From NCBI GenBank assembly GCA_944384385.1, contig CALWTG010000001.1, positions 1 to 46,145 of the forward strand: DNA of 46,145 nucleotides, read 5' to 3'. Position numbers and translations under genes: made by a program. Position 1 is the first letter of the stretch; each line of letters begins with the position of its first letter. The notes beneath the pieces were generated by a model that saw nothing but the letters and a program-made list of their open reading frames with translations, searched no databases and was not told the origin of the DNA. The DNA is from an uncultured Clostridia bacterium. Its GTDB lineage: Bacteria > Bacillota > Clostridia > Christensenellales > UBA1242. Of the stretch, positions 5,027 through 46,034 are shown piece after piece.

Positions 5027-6847
5027 ATGCCAACATCAAAATATCACAGGTTTTACAAATTTAAAAACGGAGCAACACTTATTTACTTTAAGCACAATGT
5101 AAACAACACCACAAGAGTTACAGGTGGGTTTATAAGTGGCTCACAAAAAGATATTATTCCAGGCACTGCTCACTATTTGGAGCATATGATGGCCAATATA
5201 AAGGGGCAAGAAGATGTCTTAAGGAGAAGTGGCATTGAATTTAATGCTTTCACCGGTGCAAGTTATGTTTGTTTAGATTTTGATATTCCGAACAGAAATC
5301 TTGATTTAGGTTTTGATATTTTTAGTCGAATGACATTTAATAAAAATTTTAATGAACAAGACTTTGAAAATGAGCGCAAAGCCATACTTCAAGAAGAAAA
5401 ATTAAATGGGAACAGAGACATAAGTTTAACTGATTACTTTAATCAGACTTATCGCGAGGAAAAAATCACTGGAACCGAAGAAGATATAAAAAAGATTAAA
5501 ATTCAAGATCTCTTAGATTATCAAAATCAAAATTTTGTTTCTGAAAATTATGTTATTTGTGTAACAAGCTCTCTTGATTTCGACACAGTTAAACAAAAAG
5601 TTGAAGATAGCATAGTATCAAAGCTTCCAAGTGATATAAGCAAGAAAAACACTCCTCATAAAGATGAAAGAAAATTGCCAACTAGTTATTTCATCTACAA
5701 ACCAATAAATGACTTAAAAACAATAAGCCTCACCTTTGCAATTGTTGATAATATGTCTTTTGAAAGCATAAATGTTCATGACTATATAGATGACTTTATC
5801 TTCAATGATTCTTTTTCTGGACTTATGTTAAAAAAATTCAGAACAGAGAAAGGAATTGTATACAGCGCCTACATGAACAACCAGTGTGGCCTAAATAACG
5901 ATGTTTACAAAGTTTTCACAATTACAACATCAAAAGAGCATGTCAATGAAGTGATAAAGACACTCGCTGAAGTTCTTGAGCTTGCACGAAAAGGAATGTC
6001 AGAAAAGGAATATGCTGATTACATCTCAAAACTAAAAACAATAGAATCTGATAGAAGAGTTCAACAAAAATTCTTGGATTCAACTACAATTTTGCAAAGG
6101 TACATAGATGGCGAAAAACTATGGTTTAATAATCCTGTTCATAAAGCCGTCAAATTGACTAGGGAACAAATAAACAATTATTTAAATAGAACATTTAAAA
6201 ATAAGCCTATTTATTTCCAACTTGTTGGTGATTTTGATTTAAATAAGGTGTATACTCCAACAGAAATACAAGAAATGACAAAATCTAAGTGTTTTGACTT
6301 TATTCAAGAAAAAGATTCAACTGACACTTATTATTACTCCACAAAAACCGGAGAAGAGCTTGACTCAAAAGAGATGGAGAAAAGCCAAGAACACAGAGGC
6401 TCTCTTCATATAGTAGAAGATGAAGGAGAGGTAAGTATATTTGACTCTCTCGCACTCGCAATGCTCCCACTTAGCATAGAGAGCAAACTTGCAATTATTG
6501 AAAAACTAGCAAAATTATCAGGAATAGATGACCTTGAGCTTATATTAAAAGAACGCAGCAAAAAAAGACATCTCGTTGAGATGTTTGCTAAAAAGTTAAA
6601 TATTAGTTTAGATTTGGAAAATGGAACTATTCAAGTATTAGACAACAACAACTATACTCCTAACGAAATAATACAAAGACTTAGGAATGAGTCATTAAAA
6701 AAACGTCTTAAACTAATTGAAGAATATGCTAAGAAACAAGGAGTCAATTTAAGCTTCAATATTTCGGGAGATGATAGTAGTCAAGAGGAGCAAGAACAAT
6801 CAAACGACCAAGAAGAGTCAAACAATCAAGAAGAGATACAAAAATAA
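5027..6847 (+). CDS. M16 (pitrilysin) family zinc peptidase with a ~190-aa C-terminal extension
   Basis: Inverted zinc motif H-Y-L-E-H (HxxEH) with a downstream FENERKAILQEE glutamate block. RBS GGGAGAG precedes the ATG at 5027. The track start at 4934 would read through the rpsT terminator. Confidence 0.75.
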   Translation: MPTSKYHRFYKFKNGATLIYFKHNVNNTTRVTGGFISGSQKDIIPGTAHYLEHMMANIKGQEDVLRRSGIEFNAFTGASYVCLDFDIPNRNLDLGFDIFSRMTFNKNFNEQDFENERKAILQEEKLNGNRDISLTDYFNQTYREEKITGTEEDIKKIKIQDLLDYQNQNFVSENYVICVTSSLDFDTVKQKVEDSIVSKLPSDISKKNTPHKDERKLPTSYFIYKPINDLKTISLTFAIVDNMSFESINVHDYIDDFIFNDSFSGLMLKKFRTEKGIVYSAYMNNQCGLNNDVYKVFTITTSKEHVNEVIKTLAEVLELARKGMSEKEYADYISKLKTIESDRRVQQKFLDSTTILQRYIDGEKLWFNNPVHKAVKLTREQINNYLNRTFKNKPIYFQLVGDFDLNKVYTPTEIQEMTKSKCFDFIQEKDSTDTYYYSTKTGEELDSKEMEKSQEHRGSLHIVEDEGEVSIFDSLALAMLPLSIESKLAIIEKLAKLSGIDDLELILKERSKKRHLVEMFAKKLNISLDLENGTIQVLDNNNYTPNEIIQRLRNESLKKRLKLIEEYAKKQGVNLSFNISGDDSSQEEQEQSNDQEESNNQEEIQK

Positions 6848-6871
6848 ACCACAAAATGTGGTTTATTTTTT
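6846..6871. terminator. Bidirectional terminator between convergent genes
   Basis: AAACCACAaaaTGTGGTTT followed by atttttt. Confidence 0.6.
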
Positions 6872-7198
6872 GTTTTGAATATTCAATCTTTTAATTAGCA
6901 CAACGTGTTTAAAATCACGCTTGATTTGTTCGTTTGTAGGGAAGAATGGGAAAGACGCTTTTTCGTTTCTTGTCTTTATCACAAATTTTTTGACATGTTC
7001 TTTAAGGTCTTGCTCGCACTGTGCAATTTCTTCATGCACAATATCTTTCATAACAATTCCGGGAACAAAACCGTGAATTTTGCCGTTTTCACGAGTAAAA
7101 ACAAGAGGAATACTGATTTTTGAATCATCTTGCTTGTTTTCTGGTGCTTTTTCTTCTTTTTGTTCAAATGCAAAATAGTTATGTTTAACAAATGCCAT
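6863..7198 (-). CDS. Hypothetical protein, possibly with a HicB-like/UPF0150-type fold
   Basis: Start placed at MAFVKH (7198), preceded by GAGGG. The pattern IPLVFTRENGKIHGFVPGI + helix (HEEIAQCEQDLKEHVKKFV) + PFFPTNEQI loosely resembles HicB-type antitoxin N-domains. No hicA partner is adjacent. Confidence 0.35.
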   Translation of the reverse strand: MAFVKHNYFAFEQKEEKAPENKQDDSKISIPLVFTRENGKIHGFVPGIVMKDIVHEEIAQCEQDLKEHVKKFVIKTRNEKASFPFFPTNEQIKRDFKHVVLIKRLNIQNKK

Positions 7199-32426: not shown

Positions 32427-33551
32427 ATGGGTTTGTTTAATTTTATTAAGAGACAATTACTTGAAGTCATTGAGTGGAAAGATAGTTCAAAAGATACCAT
32501 TGTGTATCGCTTTCCATTGACTGACCGTGAAGAAATCATGACTTCATCAACTTTGGTCGTTCGTGAGAGCCAAGTTGCAATATTTGTACATAAAGGTCAA
32601 GTTGCCGATGTCTTTACGCCAGGCACCTACAAACTTTCAACAGAGAACATACCATTTTTGACAAAGATTTTGTCTCTTCCAACAGGATTTGAGTCGCCAA
32701 TAAAGGCAGAAGTTTATTTTGTCAACACAAAGCAATTTGTTGGTCAAAAGTGGGGCACGCAAAATCCAATAATGATGCGCGACAGTGAGTTTGGAACAAT
32801 AAGACTCCGAGGCTTTGGAGTGTATTCTTTCAAAGTTAGTGATGCAAAACTTTTTATGCAAGAAGTTTTTGGAACAAATGAAGTTTACAAAGTTGAAGAT
32901 GTTGCATTGCAAATAAAGCCAATGCTAATTCAAGCAGTTACTGACGCAATCGCTGAAAGTAAAATTTCTGCCATTGACCTTGCTGCCAATTACAGAGAGT
33001 TTTCAAGCGAAATCCTTAAAATGAGTGAGCCAGAATTTTCAAAATATGGACTAAAACTATGCAGTGTTGTCATTGAAAATCTTTCACTTCCAGAAGATGT
33101 TGAGAAGGCACTTGACGAAAGAACAAAACTTGGAGTGCTTGAAGACAAAATGGGCACATACACCCAGTACCAAGCCGCTCAGGCAATTCGTGATGCAGCA
33201 CAAAACGAAAGTGGCGGAAATCTTGCGGGACTTGGCGTTGGGCTTGGTGCAGGCACGACAATAGGCGGGGTTTTTGCAAACAACATAACAACAGAAAATA
33301 AGCCAAAAGTCAAAACTGTTGTTTGTGAAAAGTGCGGGGCAAAGATGCGTGAAGGTGCAAAGTTTTGCCCAGAGTGTGGTGCAGCACAAGGCGCAGTTTG
33401 TCCAAAGTGTGGCAAACCAGTTTCGAAAAATGCAAAATTTTGCCCAGAGTGCGGCGAAAATTTGAAAAAAGAAATAGTTTGTAAAAAGTGCGGAGCAAAA
33501 ATAAAGAAAACTGCAAAATTCTGCCCAGAGTGTGGAACAAAAGTGGAATAG
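32427..33551 (+). CDS. SPFH/band-7 family protein (COG4260, YdjI-like) with three C-terminal zinc ribbons
   Basis: MGLFNFIKRQLLEVIEWKD...IVYRFP N-terminus typical of COG4260. The C-terminus (nt 33324-33536) has 3 copies of C-x2-C-G-x7-8-AKFCPECG. Promoter-like TTGACT-17-TAAAAT lies upstream. Confidence 0.8.
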   Translation: MGLFNFIKRQLLEVIEWKDSSKDTIVYRFPLTDREEIMTSSTLVVRESQVAIFVHKGQVADVFTPGTYKLSTENIPFLTKILSLPTGFESPIKAEVYFVNTKQFVGQKWGTQNPIMMRDSEFGTIRLRGFGVYSFKVSDAKLFMQEVFGTNEVYKVEDVALQIKPMLIQAVTDAIAESKISAIDLAANYREFSSEILKMSEPEFSKYGLKLCSVVIENLSLPEDVEKALDERTKLGVLEDKMGTYTQYQAAQAIRDAAQNESGGNLAGLGVGLGAGTTIGGVFANNITTENKPKVKTVVCEKCGAKMREGAKFCPECGAAQGAVCPKCGKPVSKNAKFCPECGENLKKEIVCKKCGAKIKKTAKFCPECGTKVE

Positions 33552-33557
33552 GTCATT

Positions 33558-34628
33558 ATGCAGTTTGAAACAGTAATCAAATCAACACAAGATAAATGTG
33601 CTTCTTGTGGTGGACATCTATATTTCTCGCCCGAGGACCAAGCGCTTAAATGTAAGTCTTGTGGCGGACTTGAAAAAATCGAGTTCAATCACGACAATCA
33701 AAAGCATAGATATGAGATAAACGCCGAAAAGGGCGAAGAGCACAAAAAATATGCACAAGAAAACAAAGTTTTTAAGTGTGCATCGTGCGGAGCAAATGTG
33801 GTTTTAAACAGACTTGATGTTGCGACTAAGTGCCCTTATTGTGACAGTAGCACTATGATTTCAGAAGATGTGGATATTGGGCTTAGACCAGACTCAATCA
33901 TTCCTTTTAAGTTCGGCACAAAAAAAGCGACAGAACTTTATAAAGCTGGATTAAAAAAGAAGTGGTTTTTGCCAAATGTTTTCAAAAAAAGTCCACCTAT
34001 GGACGAAGTTAAAGGTGTGTATGTTCCATGTTTTAGCTTTGACGCACACTCGCACACAGATTATTATGGTAGACTTGCAGTAAATCACACAAAGACTACG
34101 AGAGATGGTCACACAAAGACATACACAACATACTACAACATTGCAGGACAAAGAGATTTTGACCATCATGACATCTTGGTCGAAACAAGTGCACACATCG
34201 ATCAAATTGTATTTAACGGCATAAAGCCATACAATCTTAAAGAACTCGTGGTGTATGACGATGCCTTCATCAGAGGTTACAGTTTGGAGCACTATGACCA
34301 AGCGCTTGAAAACTGCAAAAAAGTTGCAAACGCAATGATGGAGAAAACCATCGAAAGCCAAATTTTGTCGTCTTATTCATATTCTTATGTTCAAAGTTAT
34401 GACCAAAACATCAAGTTTAGTGATGAAAAATATTCATATTACATAGTGCCAACATACAGTGTAAAATACAAATACAAAGGCAAAAACTATTTGACATATA
34501 TGAACGGGCAAACGGGCAAGGTCGGTGGCGGACTTCCAAGGTCGGCAGTAAAAATCACATTTTTTGTGCTGTTTATACTACTAGTTGTTGTTGGTATAAT
34601 TGCACTGATTTATATTTTCGGGGAATAG
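33558..34628 (+). CDS. Zinc-ribbon membrane protein (YdjG-like architecture)
   Basis: Two CxxC...CxxC ribbons (CASCGG..CKSCGG; CASCGA..CPYCDS), a central domain, the motif VPTYSVKYKYKGKNYLTYMNGQTGKV, and a C-terminal TM ITFFVLFILLVVVGIIALIYIF. Confidence 0.6.
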   Translation: MQFETVIKSTQDKCASCGGHLYFSPEDQALKCKSCGGLEKIEFNHDNQKHRYEINAEKGEEHKKYAQENKVFKCASCGANVVLNRLDVATKCPYCDSSTMISEDVDIGLRPDSIIPFKFGTKKATELYKAGLKKKWFLPNVFKKSPPMDEVKGVYVPCFSFDAHSHTDYYGRLAVNHTKTTRDGHTKTYTTYYNIAGQRDFDHHDILVETSAHIDQIVFNGIKPYNLKELVVYDDAFIRGYSLEHYDQALENCKKVANAMMEKTIESQILSSYSYSYVQSYDQNIKFSDEKYSYYIVPTYSVKYKYKGKNYLTYMNGQTGKVGGGLPRSAVKITFFVLFILLVVVGIIALIYIFGE

Positions 34629-42150: not shown

Positions 42151-42399
42151 ATGAAAAAAAATTATGATATGATACTCATAGCACTCGCAGGTATTGGTGC
42201 ACTTGCTAGCCTTGTCGTGCTCATAATTTGCGTTAATGCACTCATCTCATATGGTGCAACAAGTTTGCGTATTTGGGGTATTGTTGGAACAGTTATTGCG
42301 TTTGTAGTATGTATGGCGCTTATTGGTATGCTTGTGTACTATTACCGCCAGCATCAAATGACCGCAAAAGACGGAGAAAAAAGCGTTTTAGATGAATAA
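42151..42399 (+). CDS. Small 2-TM membrane protein (82 aa)
   Basis: RBS AAGGAGAA. Two hydrophobic helices. No terminator separates it from gyrA. Confidence 0.5.
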   Translation: MKKNYDMILIALAGIGALASLVVLIICVNALISYGATSLRIWGIVGTVIAFVVCMALIGMLVYYYRQHQMTAKDGEKSVLDE

Positions 42400-42625
42400 A
42401 GCGATGTATCCACTTCTCATCTTTACTTGTGCCTTTTGCATGGTGCTTAGCATAGTGATGATTGTGCTGTCTGCACTTGGCATACTGGTATCAAGTGATG
42501 AGATGGTGACTAGCATAGTACTTTTTTCAATTTTGTTTTTTGTGTCTATGGTTGCGCTGGGATTAATAATTACAATCAAACACTCGACGACAAACACAAC
42601 TAAATACAAAAATGATGACAAATAA
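42392..42625 (+). CDS. Small 2-TM membrane protein (77 aa)
   Basis: Overlaps the preceding ORF by 8 nt. Two hydrophobic helices and a polar tail. Confidence 0.45.
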   Translation: MNKAMYPLLIFTCAFCMVLSIVMIVLSALGILVSSDEMVTSIVLFSILFFVSMVALGLIITIKHSTTNTTKYKNDDK

Positions 42626-42661
42626 AAAATCTCGCCTAAAATTAAATTGGGCGAGATTTTT
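42624..42661. terminator. Bidirectional terminator shared by convergent operons
   Basis: aaaaaATCTCGCC-N12-GGCGAGATttttt. Confidence 0.75.
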
Positions 42662-42664
42662 CAA

Positions 42665-42760
42665 TTAAATAAAAAACTTAAACATTATAACTAAAATAAA
42701 AAAATTAATAATAAGCAGAATGACATTTGCAGTCAGTAATGGTGTTTTATGTTGTTTCAT
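42665..42760 (-). CDS. Candidate 31-aa hydrophobic micropeptide (below the ORF-track cutoff)
   Basis: My minus-strand translation is MKQHKTPLLTANVILLIINFFILVIMFKFFI*. Its ATG overlaps the TGA of the upstream 384-aa gene (ATGA). GGAGGAAG lies immediately 5' of the ATG on that strand. It ends 4 nt before the terminator. Confidence 0.45.
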   Translation of the reverse strand: MKQHKTPLLTANVILLIINFFILVIMFKFFI

Positions 42761-43911
42761 TCTTCCTCCTTTTTGTTAAGTGCATTGCATAAAGACTGTG
42801 CTATTTGGCATTTGTAGTTAATTGATTCAGTAGTATATTGCTTTATTAAATATTTGCATATTGTTTTATCAATATAGTCAATTACATATCCTAAAATCAT
42901 TATAACCGTGATTGCTATAAATAATTTGACAAGTGTCGATATTGATAAGCCAGCAATAGTTAAAGTAATAAAAAGAATGTTTAAAATTACACTAAAAATT
43001 GTAAAAGGTACATATATAAATAAATGTCTATTATTAAAACAATTGGTAATTTTTTGTATTTTTTCATCAATAATAACATCCAAAATTAAATTTTCAATAT
43101 TATTTGCAATACAGTAAATTGTATAATTTTTTCCTTTATATTTGAAATCTAGGCTATAAATTGGTACTTTATATGTCTCTACATTGCTAATACTGCCACT
43201 TCCATTATGTATATCTAAATCTTTATAACTATTGATTTTAATATATTGTTTATAATTTTTTGCAGAATTTTGTATATTCTCAGTTAGAAGAGAGTCAAGT
43301 TCCTTATTGCTCGGAACGGGGTAGTCTTCACTTGATTCCTTAAAATCACAATTTGAGAATTTGAGAACTTGTTTTTTTATTTCATTTTTTATATAACTAT
43401 TTAAATTTGCATTTTGCACACATATAGATTTATCAAATACTTTAAAATTTCCAGAGTAAGGTTTTTCCGCAGTTTCTGTAACATATCTATCCACCCAATG
43501 TGTTTTATATTTTTTTGAACGATTATCATAATAGGTTTCTGCTACATTTCTTTTTTGTCTCGTCTCAACAAGCAATGTTAGCGAATAGGATATTTCAATA
43601 TTGCAATCTATTGTCGATATGTATGTATAACTAAACTTTGGTGCTTCAAATTTTGCATCAAAAATATCTTTTGGTATCTCTTTTTTTGTTGCTAAAAACA
43701 TAAACGCTTTTTTCAAAAAAAGGTTAGAGTTTAATTCGTCATCTATTTTATAACAATTTGAATTATATACTTTTTTATGGTTTGTATTAAAATTTATTTC
43801 CGTATTCCCAAGTAGAAATTTTGTTCCACAATGTTGGCATGTTGCCACATTATCTTTAATTTTTATATTATTAGACCCACAATTTGAACAGTTAAGTTCT
43901 TCTTTCTTCAA
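42757..43911 (-). CDS. Zinc-ribbon / C-terminal 2-TM protein, paralog of the 33558-34628 product
   Basis: N-terminal C-x2-C-x13-C-x2-C ribbon (CSNCG...CQHCG). The motif VPIYSLDFKYKGKNYTIY matches VPTYSVKYKYKGKNYLTY in the other protein. Two C-terminal TM helices. TTG start 8 nt after GGAG, overlapping the upstream stop (TTGA). Confidence 0.7.
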   Translation of the reverse strand: MKKEELNCSNCGSNNIKIKDNVATCQHCGTKFLLGNTEINFNTNHKKVYNSNCYKIDDELNSNLFLKKAFMFLATKKEIPKDIFDAKFEAPKFSYTYISTIDCNIEISYSLTLLVETRQKRNVAETYYDNRSKKYKTHWVDRYVTETAEKPYSGNFKVFDKSICVQNANLNSYIKNEIKKQVLKFSNCDFKESSEDYPVPSNKELDSLLTENIQNSAKNYKQYIKINSYKDLDIHNGSGSISNVETYKVPIYSLDFKYKGKNYTIYCIANNIENLILDVIIDEKIQKITNCFNNRHLFIYVPFTIFSVILNILFITLTIAGLSISTLVKLFIAITVIMILGYVIDYIDKTICKYLIKQYTTESINYKCQIAQSLCNALNKKEEE

Positions 43912-44462
43912 TTTATTTTCTCCTTATGTAACAAAGAATTTAGAATATGATTTATTCGGTTTTCAAATAAATATTTGTTTAAATTTTTTCTTTCTGTACA
44001 ACCCCTTGTTAAAAAAAAATCTCCATTTAAATTGAATGAAATTTGGAATTTACTATCTTGCTTCGTTATATCTTTTTTTGTATGGATATTATCTACAAAT
44101 TCTTGCATTTCATTGTTTGTAAAAGCAAGCATAATGTTTTTCCATTTGAAATTTGTTAGTTGTTCATCTGTGGGAAGTGGGCAAATTCCACATAAAATAT
44201 ACCAATCAGCATTCTTATTCACTGAAAATCTATTAAAAAACATATTAGCATAATAAACTTCTTTTGTTTTGTCTAAGTAAGTTCTTGAAGATTTGACTTG
44301 GAAAGTTAACATATTTTGATGTTCTGCATAACTATATAACAATAAATCAATACCTTTTTCTTGACGAGATAAAGGAATGAAAACAGAACAATCTTTAAAT
44401 TTTTCTTTTAGTTCTTCGGCTACAGTCCATTCGTTAAATTGTAAAGTAAATATTGGATTCAT
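43908..44462 (-). CDS. PD-(D/E)xK nuclease-fold candidate (Mrr/DUF4365/NERD-like core), 184 aa
   Basis: The order and spacing E16-E17 ... G-I-D39-L-L-L-Y ... F-Q55-V-K57-S-S fit the E...D...(E/Q)xK restriction-endonuclease-like core. RBS AGAGG. The assignment is motif-level only. Confidence 0.55.
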   Translation of the reverse strand: MNPIFTLQFNEWTVAEELKEKFKDCSVFIPLSRQEKGIDLLLYSYAEHQNMLTFQVKSSRTYLDKTKEVYYANMFFNRFSVNKNADWYILCGICPLPTDEQLTNFKWKNIMLAFTNNEMQEFVDNIHTKKDITKQDSKFQISFNLNGDFFLTRGCTERKNLNKYLFENRINHILNSLLHKEKIN

Positions 44463-44487
44463 AAAGTAATACCTCTATGGCAATAAT

Positions 44488-44535
44488 ACATCATAAAGTG
44501 ATGTAAGTCAAGTTATTTACATCACTAAGTGATAT
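44488..44535. promoter_or_regulatory. Two palindromic operator-like sites in the divergent promoter region
   Basis: ACATCAtaaagTGATGT (44488-44504) and ACATCACtaaGTGATAT (44519-44535), 31 bp centre to centre. The second abuts the XRE ATG. Confidence 0.55.
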
Positions 44536-44544
44536 AAAATAGTT

Positions 44545-44754
44545 ATGGATATTTCAAAATCAGTAGGAAAAGTTATAAAGCAAGCACGAAAAGATAAAGG
44601 CTTGACACAAAGAGAGATGGCAAGCAAATTTAGAATGACGCAACAACAATATAGTAGATTTGAAAATGGTATTTTTGAATTGAATTATAGCCAAATTATA
44701 TTGATATGTAAATATTTAGACATTACTCCGAATGACCTTTTTGATTTTGAATAG
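44545..44754 (+). CDS. XRE/Cro-type helix-turn-helix regulator (69 aa)
   Basis: LTQREMASKFRMTQQQYSRFENGIFELNYSQIILICKYL is a canonical HTH_3 pattern. No SD is present. A TATAAA box ends 6 nt before the ATG, so the mRNA may be leaderless. Confidence 0.85.
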   Translation: MDISKSVGKVIKQARKDKGLTQREMASKFRMTQQQYSRFENGIFELNYSQIILICKYLDITPNDLFDFE

Positions 44755-44773
44755 CAAAAAGGGAAGTTTGTAA

Positions 44774-45271
44774 TATTTTTCACATCATATCAATCTCATC
44801 AAATTTTATGTCATCCAAAAAATCTTTTATTCGCATTCCAAGACCTTTACTGTAGAGTTCAAACTTGATGTTTCTGTTTTGGAAGATGGAGATTTCACAA
44901 GTTGGGTTTTAGGTCTAAACAGACTTGATGGTGAAACTTATGTTCATACAGAAGAAGTTCGTGTTGGTATTGCAAAAAAAGGTGATACATATTATATGAA
45001 TGAACTTATTGGCATTAATTATGATGATACACTAGGTTATAATGCAGTAGTTGATGGCGGACATACTGTTGAACTCAATGAAGGCAAAGTTCAAGTTGCC
45101 ATTTCACCTGAATGGGCAGATGATGTTGTAGACTATGAAATTGATGTTAATGGAGAAAAGGTTACAAACCAAAAAGCAGCAGTTGGAGTAGTTGGTTTTA
45201 GATACCTTTGGAATGTAGTTGCTAACGTTGAGGGTGTTGTAATCAGCGACCTTGAGTTTGTAGAAAAATAG
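44774..45271 (+). pseudogene. 5'-truncated remnant of a larger gene (C-terminal beta-rich domain)
   Basis: The frame is open from the stop at 44771 with no ATG or RBS. The track's TTG at 44879 is arbitrary. Protein-like sequence (KTFTVEFKLDVSVLEDGDFTSWVL...) continues upstream of that TTG. Its own terminator follows. Confidence 0.4.
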
Positions 45272-45288
45272 TGTTATTTTTCAAAAAA

Positions 45289-45315
45289 ATCTCGTCTTGT
45301 TAGACGAGATTTTTT
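45289..45315. terminator. Bidirectional terminator
   Basis: aaaaaaATCTCGTCttgttaGACGAGATtttttt. Confidence 0.75.
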
Positions 45316-45320
45316 ACATT

Positions 45321-46034
45321 TTATATTTCGTAAGATAATAAATCTTCTTGAGAGATAATATTTTGTTCATTATATTGATAGTTATCCAAATCATCATGAA
45401 AAGTATAGAATAAAGAAGCAACATCTGTTGCAAAATTGACATACCATCGCGCGTCAGCAAAAAAGTCAATATCTGCATCTTTTGTGCTTGAACGCTCAAT
45501 GCCCAAAGTGTAACAAACATTATGTATGTACCATTCACTTTCAAGCATTCTTATGCTTCTTTTTATTTCAATGTCATTATTTTTTGCAAAGTCCTGGACT
45601 TGATTCAAAACATACATTCTCTCGTCAAAATCATATCTATATGAATCTGCAATATTGACATGGTCGCTATAAAAAGTAAGGACGGTGTTTTTACCAGTTT
45701 GAGTTGCAAAAGAAATCGAGTCAATATATTTGCTAGGCACAGTAGTAACGGGCTTCACTGCGTCGGCTTTAAGCGTAATGGAAGACAAAAGCATAACAGC
45801 CAGCAAGCTTTTTAATTTTCTGCGAGGGACGATGTCATTGCCTTTGCTTTTATCTTTTGAAGTATAATCTCTATGAAATTGCTCAAACTTTTTTGCCGTT
45901 TTTTTGTCAACTTTTGTAAAGTCGATTTTCTTTAATATGTCAGAATAAAGCTTTTCGACTTTTTTATACAAATTTATGTTTATTGTTTTTTCCACTTCAC
46001 ACAACCTTTTATCTATAATGAGTTTAACCAACAT
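45321..46034 (-). CDS. Hypothetical single-pass membrane protein
   Basis: 237-aa ORF with a ~75-aa basic N-terminal part, a TM/signal-anchor LKSLLAVMLLSSITLKA, and a C-terminal extracytoplasmic domain. No motif recognised. Confidence 0.5.
   Translation of the reverse strand: MLVKLIIDKRLCEVEKTININLYKKVEKLYSDILKKIDFTKVDKKTAKKFEQFHRDYTSKDKSKGNDIVPRRKLKSLLAVMLLSSITLKADAVKPVTTVPSKYIDSISFATQTGKNTVLTFYSDHVNIADSYRYDFDERMYVLNQVQDFAKNNDIEIKRSIRMLESEWYIHNVCYTLGIERSSTKDADIDFFADARWYVNFATDVASLFYTFHDDLDNYQYNEQNIISQEDLLSYEI

Follow-up and report, generated by a model that had tools for sequence, protein, structure and literature searches.

A horizontally exchanged, putatively XRE-controlled cassette beside gyrA in an uncultured Clostridia bacterium joins genes for a putative stand-alone nuclease and a YdjG-like membrane protein

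Repressor-controlled nuclease cassettes with a membrane component are a familiar kind of genetic element, and type IV restriction enzymes of the GmrSD and PvuRts1I types are known to act alone (PMC4619093, PMC4437046). Membrane recruitment of soluble proteins has been described for the PspA/SPFH envelope-stress module, in which YdjG-type proteins act as recruiters; in Bacillus subtilis, YdjI and PspA depend on both YdjG and YdjH to reach the membrane (PMC8581546). YdjG consists of two zinc ribbons, an uncharacterized domain, and a transmembrane segment, and YdjI, which the text of the same paper labels YdjL, consists of a Band-7 domain plus C-terminal ribbons (PMC11237479). Here we describe a cassette of approximately 2.2 kb (positions 42626 to 44848) beside gyrA in a 46,145-nucleotide stretch of DNA, the window (CALWTG010000001.1, positions 1 to 46,145; GCA_944384385.1), from an uncultured Clostridia bacterium (Christensenellales; UBA1242). 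The cassette is of the familiar kind outlined above, whereas its components and the link to YdjG are unfamiliar.

The cassette is a horizontally exchanged unit that was recently transferred between two lineages. It is 98.97% identical (23 mismatches in 2,223 nt) to its counterpart in L005 (L numbers are labels for the contigs or loci with relatives that were used in the comparison), whereas the gyrB/gyrA side is 72 to 89% identical and the sequence beyond 44848 is 87.7% identical. An earlier note on this DNA had proposed a foreign origin from low G+C content, and the computed values (25.6% for the cassette, 35.7% for the remaining window, and 38.9% for gyrA) agree with this proposal, which the near identity of the cassette between lineages with diverged flanks supports more strongly. 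The same comparison does not fit a cassette conserved as core genome downstream of gyrA. Our analysis favors, with about even confidence, the reading that positions 42626 to 44848 are an XRE-repressed operon that most likely serves as a defense module against phages or other mobile elements. The whole is thus best described as a probable novel modular defense cassette, with a function and a mechanism that we infer from the comparisons below.

TABLE 1 Positions of the cassette features and of neighboring features within the window
Feature	Coordinates	Strand	Remarks
Terminator hairpin	42626-42665	.	-18.7 kcal/mol, z = -5.9; A and T runs on both sides
31-aa single-pass micropeptide	42665-42760	-	In ORF list; basic N-terminus, then approximately 20 hydrophobic residues
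384-aa YdjG-like membrane-anchored protein	42757-43911	-	TTG start; zinc ribbon, beta-rich domain, two-helix transmembrane hairpin
184-aa stand-alone PD-(D/E)xK-type protein	43908-44462	-	In ORF list; putative active site E11, D39, Q55, K57
Nuclease-operon promoter	44483-44511	-	TTGACT, 17-nt spacer, TATTAT (consensus scan)
Operator 1	44487-44506	.	TACATCA-N5-TGATGTA palindrome
Operator 2	44518-44537	.	One mismatch; 31 bp from operator 1; overlaps start region of XRE gene
69-aa XRE/Cro-type regulator	44545-44754	+	Divergent from minus-strand operon; Pfam HTH_3, 8.5e-14
Remnant of second XRE gene, last 22 codons	44780-44848	-	KGLGMRIKDFLDDIKFDEIDMM then stop; matches C-terminus of L005/L006 HTH protein
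5'-truncated lipoprotein gene, outside cassette	44849-45271	+	C-terminal 140 residues of 225-aa L005 lipoprotein
Terminator with 14-bp stem	45284-45315		Between truncated lipoprotein gene and convergent 237-aa ORF
237-aa ORF	45321-46034		No family match
Overlapping 82- and 77-aa genes	42151-42625	+	Between gyrA and cassette; two predicted transmembrane helices each
Band_7_1 SPFH protein	32427-33551	+	Three C-terminal zinc ribbons; directly before 356-aa ORF
356-aa ORF	33558-34628	+	Two zinc ribbons, one C-terminal transmembrane helix

The four open reading frames (ORFs) of the cassette and both of the start/stop overlaps that the earlier note had reported were seen in the ORF list and in the sequence (Table 1), and conserved homologs exist for all three of the larger ORFs. 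The stop codon of the 184-aa gene and the start codon of the 384-aa gene overlap in ATTGA (43908-43911), with AAGGAG 8 bases upstream, and the stop of the 384-aa gene and the start of the 31-aa ORF overlap in ATGA (42757-42760), with an AGGAGG ribosome-binding site upstream, so that ribosome-binding sites of the AAGGAG type are located within the preceding genes. A search of the window ORFs with Pfam revealed no methyltransferase in the cassette or nearby. The cassette therefore has a nuclease-type gene without a cognate methyltransferase, as do type IV restriction systems.

The control region also had the features that had been proposed for it. The palindrome TACATCA-N5-TGATGTA occurs twice within the 82-bp divergent region, and operator 1 fills the spacer between the -35 and -10 boxes of the promoter on the minus strand. 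The identification of the 69-aa protein as a helix-turn-helix (HTH) regulator was borne out in Pfam, and in PADLOC it matched HTH_VI (2e-10) and Control_protein (4e-5); there were also weak matches to antitoxin-type HTH models (MqsA, HipB, and PezA families). The 69-aa repressor would bind both palindromes, and a palindrome inside the spacer of a near-consensus promoter would hold the operon tightly shut. The same layout is common to the window, L055, L058, L059, L060, and L070, with one palindrome between the TTGAC[AT] and TATAAT boxes and another approximately 30 bp upstream; the XRE proteins across these contexts are only approximately 30% identical, and the operator sequences differ between contexts. 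At the other end of the cassette, the hairpin that had been described as a bidirectional terminator can terminate in both directions because runs of A and T lie on either side of it.

The right flank bears the mark of a deletion. L005 and L006 each have a second, intact XRE gene (64 and 78 aa, respectively) beside the 69-aa one, and relative to L005 the window has a 533-bp deletion, with its junction at position 44848, that took 84 codons from the 5' end of the lipoprotein gene together with most of the second XRE gene. This deletion accounts for the truncated flank that had been noticed before, the gene being intact in L005, and because it removed most of the second XRE gene, the strain in the window has one regulator instead of two.

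This history bears on the possibility that the cassette is an addiction or toxin-antitoxin-like element kept by post-segregational killing, in which the nuclease or the membrane protein would be toxic and the other product or the XRE protein would neutralize it. The tight repression from an operator within the promoter, the lack of a methyltransferase, and the weak matches of the XRE protein to antitoxin-type models would suit such an element, as would a small, mobile unit of low G+C content that has no integrase and is found at core-gene sites (beside gyrA in the window; in the dcw cluster in L055 and L059). However, type II systems have a co-transcribed antitoxin, and the XRE gene is on the opposite strand, divergent from the operon. 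Furthermore, the partners of the membrane protein in related cassettes include type IV nucleases, which pose no danger to a host with unmodified DNA and can do without an antitoxin, and the strain in the window lost most of its second XRE gene yet kept the operon. Thus, an addiction function seems quite improbable.

From its conserved residues and a predicted structure, we place the 184-aa protein in the restriction-endonuclease-like superfamily, as a divergent representative that has QxK in its motif and a presumptive nuclease activity. The family comprises at least 163 homologous clusters, nearly all of 178 to 189 aa; no cluster carried a Pfam domain, and the source names shown were only "hypothetical protein." In an alignment of 43 homologs, E11, G37-I38-D39, Q55, K57, S59, R60, N84-A85, and T152-R153-G154 were invariant. 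The earlier note had recognized a PD-(D/E)xK core formed by E16/E17, D39, and Q55-V-K57; D39 and Q55-V-K57 stood, whereas the upstream acid is E11 and not E16/E17. The middle position of the motif is thus occupied by Q55 and not by D or E. Glutamine at this position is tolerated in some restriction enzymes, such as HinP1I.

The suggested relation of the 184-aa protein to Mrr/DUF4365-style nucleases agrees with a series of matches below threshold. The protein scored 15.1 bits against Pfam DUF4365 (PF14280), under the cut-off of 24.3, and among the 43 family members DUF4365 was matched by four (best, 3e-4) and Mrr_cat by two. There was no meaningful match for the protein in PADLOC, NCBIfam, or PHROGs, no match of the family profile to PDB sequences, and no SRA, DUF262, or other modification-reader domain in the Pfam search. 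The AlphaFold2 model built from the family alignment had a predicted local distance difference test score (pLDDT) of 89.7 and a predicted template modeling score (pTM) of 0.86. When this model was compared with the PDB by Foldseek, all 40 of the best matches were PD-(D/E)xK nucleases, with a template modeling (TM) score of only approximately 0.3; the top matches were EcoRV (E = 7.5e-4; probability, 0.94), Hjc resolvase, and the nuclease subunit of SPARDA, a DUF4365 nuclease. The best matches in the fold check that had been suggested for this protein all belong to the proposed superfamily, but their geometric agreement with the model is weak.

The window and L005 differ at 13 codons of the nuclease gene, of which 9 differences are non-synonymous and 4 synonymous, across residues 51 to 171 approximately (43949-44312). 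These changes could reflect diversifying selection on a recognition region, although their numbers are too few for a conclusion.

The 384-aa protein had been described as a CxxC-x13-CxxC ribbon followed by a central domain and two C-terminal transmembrane helices, and this architecture was recovered. Across the family, there is almost no variation in the four ribbon cysteines (C8, C11, C25, and C28), F65, P80, and W149. A fast word-index search returned a single 99% match, as if the protein were an orphan; an exhaustive phmmer search overturned this impression with 117 representatives at E ≤ 1e-3, most of them full-length and 330 to 540 aa long. The AlphaFold2 model from 109 sequences (pLDDT, 93.3) has the ribbon at residues 1 to 33, then a helix that leads into very long beta-strands (92-129, 134-165, and 229-258) within a predicted cytoplasmic beta-rich domain (approximately 60 to 270), then long helices at 283 to 319 and 324 to 377, whose hydrophobic parts (approximately 295 to 349) form a membrane hairpin, and an amphipathic helix at the C-terminal end. 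Only zinc-ribbon models in Pfam, NCBIfam, and PADLOC matched the family, sequence-to-PDB searches gave zinc-ribbon matches only, and the model had no significant match among solved structures (Foldseek PDB). When the 109 family members were searched with PADLOC, there were HTH matches in two members, which carry an N-terminally fused HTH, and weak PDC-S64 matches in three.

A remote paralog of the 384-aa protein is encoded in the same window. The hidden Markov model (HMM) of the 384 family also matched the 356-aa ORF, whose central domain ends in YYIVPTYSVKYKYKGKNY, the counterpart of TYKVPIYSLDFKYKGKNY in the 384-aa protein. The 356-aa family has at least 1,088 clusters and no Pfam domain or name, and when the two families were aligned by hhalign, the probability of homology was 99.3% (E = 3.4e-20; 255 columns; 19% identity). 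The 356-aa ORF and the Band_7_1 protein gene before it fit the published description of the B. subtilis YdjI/YdjG pair in architecture and in neighbor, B. subtilis YdjG being compared by description only. With one N-terminal ribbon, a central domain, and two transmembrane helices, the 384-aa protein has a YdjG-like architecture, and the profile homology to the YdjG-like family in the window identifies it as a distant and mobile branch of the YdjG-type anchors. None of the 11 sampled contexts of the 384 family had a Band-7 or PspA neighbor. The Band_7_1/356-aa pair itself sits between recF and hisS, with no pspA visible next to it.

The very long beta-hairpins predicted for the 384-aa protein weakly matched secretins and the pores of aerolysin and lysenin in Foldseek (best E = 0.02; TM score, approximately 0.1; none significant) and so raised the idea of a pore-forming protein, which was dropped because homology to the cytoplasmic YdjG-type domain accounts better for the protein. 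In the BFVD collection of predicted viral structures there were only two significant matches, both to giant-virus proteins named "DnaJ-like subfamily C member 3" (Yasminevirus, E = 9.5e-7; Edafosvirus, E = 4.4e-5). These model-to-model matches suggest that the 384 fold may also be present in Klosneuvirus-like viruses.

The 31-aa ORF, which had been proposed to encode a single hydrophobic helix, is real, recurring in position and type and as a fused helix in relatives. A 33-aa ORF of the same type lies 27 nt 3' of the 384 homolog in L055, L057, and L059, and a 28-aa ORF follows the homolog with an ATGA overlap in L064. Among the 109 family representatives, at least 13 have a third transmembrane helix fused at the end, as the final 20 to 25 residues, and five more have a third helix followed by an ectodomain. 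In L053/L054, L058, and L065 the product of the downstream gene (194 to 218 aa in L053/L054 and L065; 66 aa in L058) has an N-terminal hydrophobic transmembrane segment. To judge from these sequences, the 31-aa ORF is a split-off form of the third transmembrane helix of the 384 family.

The gene neighborhoods of the 384 family were sampled in 11 distinct, non-randomly chosen contexts. In the window and its 99% copies, XRE is divergent from the 184-, 384-, and 31-aa genes. L055 to L057 and L059 (39% identity) have XRE and a PDDEXK_4 nuclease of 364 to 368 aa (Pfam PDDEXK_4, 1e-5; PADLOC PDC-S26, 3e-10) followed by a 409-aa homolog and the 33-aa ORF, and L058 has XRE and a 371-aa PDDEXK_4 protein followed by a 416-aa homolog. 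In L052 to L054 (36% identity), an enzyme with PvuRts1I-N and SRA domains (PADLOC mREase_II, 1.8e-48) precedes a 405-aa homolog and a single-pass protein, and in L052 the cassette adjoins an integrase, an EcoRI-type methylase, and a GmrSD-HNH protein. XRE and a 438-aa homolog precede a GmrSD_N-HNH gene in L060 (30% identity), and GmrSD precedes a 413-aa homolog and the 28-aa ORF in L064 (29% identity). The remaining contexts are XRE and a 420-aa homolog followed by a Big_2 protein (L065), XRE and a 504-aa homolog at a contig end (L070), a divergent HD protein and a 411-aa homolog at a contig end (L061, in which the upstream side alone was readable and had no nuclease), a 384-aa homolog at a contig end (L063), and homologs that stand solo among housekeeping genes (L066 to L069). 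A metagenome scan with close relatives of the 384-aa protein gave only two loci, and locus scans based on patterns yielded little because the broad alignments had diverged too far.

A nuclease is adjacent in all five contexts of the closest 384 relatives, or in six of six when the query cassette is included. The partner nucleases in the five contexts of relatives are of four different kinds, three contexts carrying type IV restriction families, and the nuclease and membrane genes overlap or are closely spaced. Four of these relatives (L055, L058, L059, and L060) share the XRE/operator promoter design of the window cassette. A divergent small XRE gene is the more general companion of the family, present in 6 of the 11 contexts. 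The recurring unit is thus a 384-type protein that is accompanied by XRE, a small membrane protein, and a nuclease that can be exchanged. In L055 (3608-6358) and L059 (3587-6337) the homologous cassette lies inside the dcw cluster between ftsW and murA, an insertion site that, like the gyrA site, is a core-gene neighborhood without an integrase.

The 184-aa family has a distribution of its own. A scan of one genome per species yielded 45 loci with a 184 homolog, spread patchily over Lachnospiraceae, Oscillospiraceae, Clostridium, Erysipelotrichaceae, Phascolarctobacterium, Spirochaetales, Bacteroidales, and metagenome-assembled genomes labeled Akkermansia. The earlier note's expectation that the 184/384/micropeptide/XRE neighborhood would be conserved elsewhere was not borne out beyond this lineage, and a conserved 184-384 pairing was rejected, since none of the 45 loci has a 384-family gene near the 184 homolog. 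Within the lineage, the ≥90% identity cluster of the 184-aa protein had 22 members and that of the 384-aa protein had 17, and because members of both clusters sit on contigs that match in length, the pair is stable there. A tyrosine integrase lies directly upstream of the 184 homolog in approximately 10 of the 45 loci, serine recombinase, HNH, and excisionase-like genes are close to some homologs, one homolog adjoins a type II CRISPR-Cas9 locus, and no methyltransferase cluster was found around the homologs. The closest homolog (61% identity), in L001 (1600-2511), has no 384-type gene after it; the gene that begins 10 nt on encodes a tail-anchored, coiled-coil membrane protein of 81 aa. Its promoter has the window-type operator, ACATCA-N5-TGATGT, between TTGACA and TATAAT, and no XRE gene is adjacent to the homolog.

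In 12 genomes a gene for a DUF6508 protein (approximately 140 to 160 aa) lies immediately 3' of the 184 homolog (L010, L012, L016, L020, L023, L027, L029, L032, L034, L035, L039, and L048, at approximately 6550 to 7010). The genes for the 184 homolog and the DUF6508 protein may be another conserved pair, one that marks the boundary of integrated elements.

A rival explanation is that two independent modules merely share one repressed promoter. The XRE protein, the YdjG-like protein, and its small partner would then be a self-contained unit, perhaps an envelope-stress, superinfection-exclusion, or abortive-infection membrane module, and the nucleases would hitch-hike with it uncoupled. This explanation is serious because type IV enzymes, including those of the GmrSD and PvuRts1I types found here as partners, work alone and because distant 384 members have no nuclease. 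The wider association of the family with XRE, which extends to the two of 109 members with a fused HTH, and the 45 genomes that have a 184 homolog without a 384-type gene are also as it predicts. However, translational coupling or very short spacing is seen in five different nuclease pairings, the order in most pairings is nuclease and then membrane gene, and even the closest 184 homolog, that of L001, precedes a small tail-anchored membrane protein. On this evidence we consider uncoupled modules unlikely, with perhaps a minor share of the overall probability.

It could also be supposed that the genes are a housekeeping paralog pair, with the 384-aa protein a second YdjG-type envelope-stress scaffold and the 184-aa protein a repair or resolvase-type enzyme whose adjacency is accidental. 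The homology of the 384-aa protein to the YdjG-like family, the presence of Hjc resolvase among the fold matches of the 184-aa protein, and a family member (P0241) that stands alone among housekeeping genes could be understood in this way. The G+C content of the cassette, 10 points under that of the genome, and its 99% identity across lineages with flanks that differ by 11 to 28% could not. A housekeeping pair is also difficult to reconcile with the patchy distribution, the integrases associated with 184 homologs, and the recurring association of 384 homologs with GmrSD and PvuRts1I-type enzymes. We regard it as very improbable.

The edges of the transferred block differ in how well they can be placed. 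The left edge is sharp at 42626, just after the stop codon of the upstream 77-aa ORF, whereas on the right high identity continues up to the deletion junction, so that the true edge is not fixed by the comparison. A search for direct or inverted terminal repeats at both ends (42626 and 44848) gave nothing convincing, the matches being AT-rich and due to chance. The overlapping 82- and 77-aa genes between gyrA and the cassette form the stretch most diverged from L005 (72 to 74% identity). A phage or plasmid origin was rejected, there being no match to phage, plasmid, or IMG/VR records.

If the cassette is a defense module, its parts suggest how it might work. The 184-aa enzyme would be a Mg2+-dependent DNA endonuclease without a partner methyltransferase, and the 384-aa protein and its 31-aa partner helix would form a membrane platform that faces the cytoplasm. 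By analogy with YdjG, this platform could tether, position, or gate the nuclease at the membrane, and the site of action would be the point of entry of foreign DNA or of damage to the envelope by infection. In this scheme the nuclease would be an exchangeable effector, with the membrane protein, the small membrane partner, and XRE as the conserved chassis. A bolder and doubtful extension is that a branch of the YdjG family was recruited as the chassis of a new modular, membrane-coupled class of restriction systems, in which the zinc-ribbon platform, with its single-pass partner helix or ectodomain, would sense envelope or membrane disturbance upon phage entry and then position or license interchangeable nucleases. 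These would be the new 184 family, PDDEXK_4, PvuRts1I-SRA, and GmrSD. Such a class, if real, would link membrane-stress sensing directly to DNA restriction.

Several observations weigh against a defense module of coupled parts. The second acidic position of the 184-aa protein is a non-canonical glutamine, the protein is under the threshold for DUF4365 and every Pfam nuclease family, and the geometry of its fold match to nucleases is weak. The neighborhood evidence consists of only 11 contexts that were not randomly sampled, and a nuclease is adjacent in none of the three informative contexts of distant 384 members (L066 to L069, L065, and L061). The absence of a 384-family gene near all 45 of the 184 loci points in the same direction, and since type IV enzymes work alone, adjacency may reflect co-transfer. 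No defense genes flank the cassette in the window. Neither the 50,697 phage records nor the 72,556 plasmid records searched by tblastn contained a match to the 184-aa protein, the 384-aa protein, or P0153, a mainstream family member used as an extra query, and a scan of IMG/VR gave no match.

If the cassette is protective against phages, it would represent an undescribed two-to-three-gene system built from two families that are unannotated in Pfam, NCBIfam, and PADLOC, and it would provide a first functional handle on a stand-alone nuclease family of gut Clostridia, Spirochaetes, and other bacteria. YdjG is the anchor of the PspA/flotillin-like envelope-stress complex, and the recurrence of one of its relatives beside restriction nucleases, those of type IV among them, suggests that a membrane platform is the base from which some restriction enzymes act. 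With respect to gene-cassette biology, the locus is a 2.2-kb unit without an integrase that lies between core genes and is 99% identical between genomes.

Comparison with known systems agrees with the earlier note's impression that no named system corresponds to the cassette. PADLOC-DB 2.0.0, whose models include Shedu, Kiwa, Zorya, Gabija, the PD-T4/PD-Lambda sets, and PDC candidates, gave no match for the 184-, 384-, or 31-aa proteins, and a literature search found no described defense system of a nuclease and a zinc-ribbon membrane protein that matches it.

The closest counterpart of the membrane protein is YdjG of the B. subtilis pspA-ydjGHI operon, which likewise has an N-terminal zinc ribbon, an uncharacterized beta-rich cytoplasmic domain, and a C-terminal anchor. 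Both have a neighboring membrane protein, YdjH in that operon and the 31-aa or larger single-pass proteins here. The 384-aa protein and its relatives differ in having one ribbon and not two and two or three transmembrane helices and not one, and the 384-aa gene lies without a Band-7 or PspA neighbor in a mobile, low-G+C, XRE-controlled nuclease cassette.

The 184-aa protein resembles the stand-alone or type IV PD-(D/E)xK nucleases (Mrr/DUF4365, PvuRts1I, and EcoRV-like) in its small size, the lack of a methyltransferase, the E...D...(Q)xK motif, and a mobile genomic distribution; it differs in the glutamine that replaces the second acid and in having no recognizable reader domain.

Type II Zorya (ZorAB with ZorE) and Kiwa (KwaAB) follow the same grammar, with a membrane component and a DNA-targeting effector in one operon and with exchangeable effectors around a conserved membrane chassis. 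However, no homology to them was detected, the PADLOC search with models that included Zorya gave no relevant match, and the cassette has no MotAB-like motor protein, the 384-aa protein being mostly cytoplasmic.

C-protein restriction-modification systems also have a small HTH_3 regulator and two palindromic operators at the nuclease promoter. In those systems the regulator is upstream and co-transcribed, whereas the regulator of the cassette is divergent, and the cassette has no methyltransferase. Because the operator sits within the promoter spacer, plain repression is suggested here rather than the switch between activation and repression.

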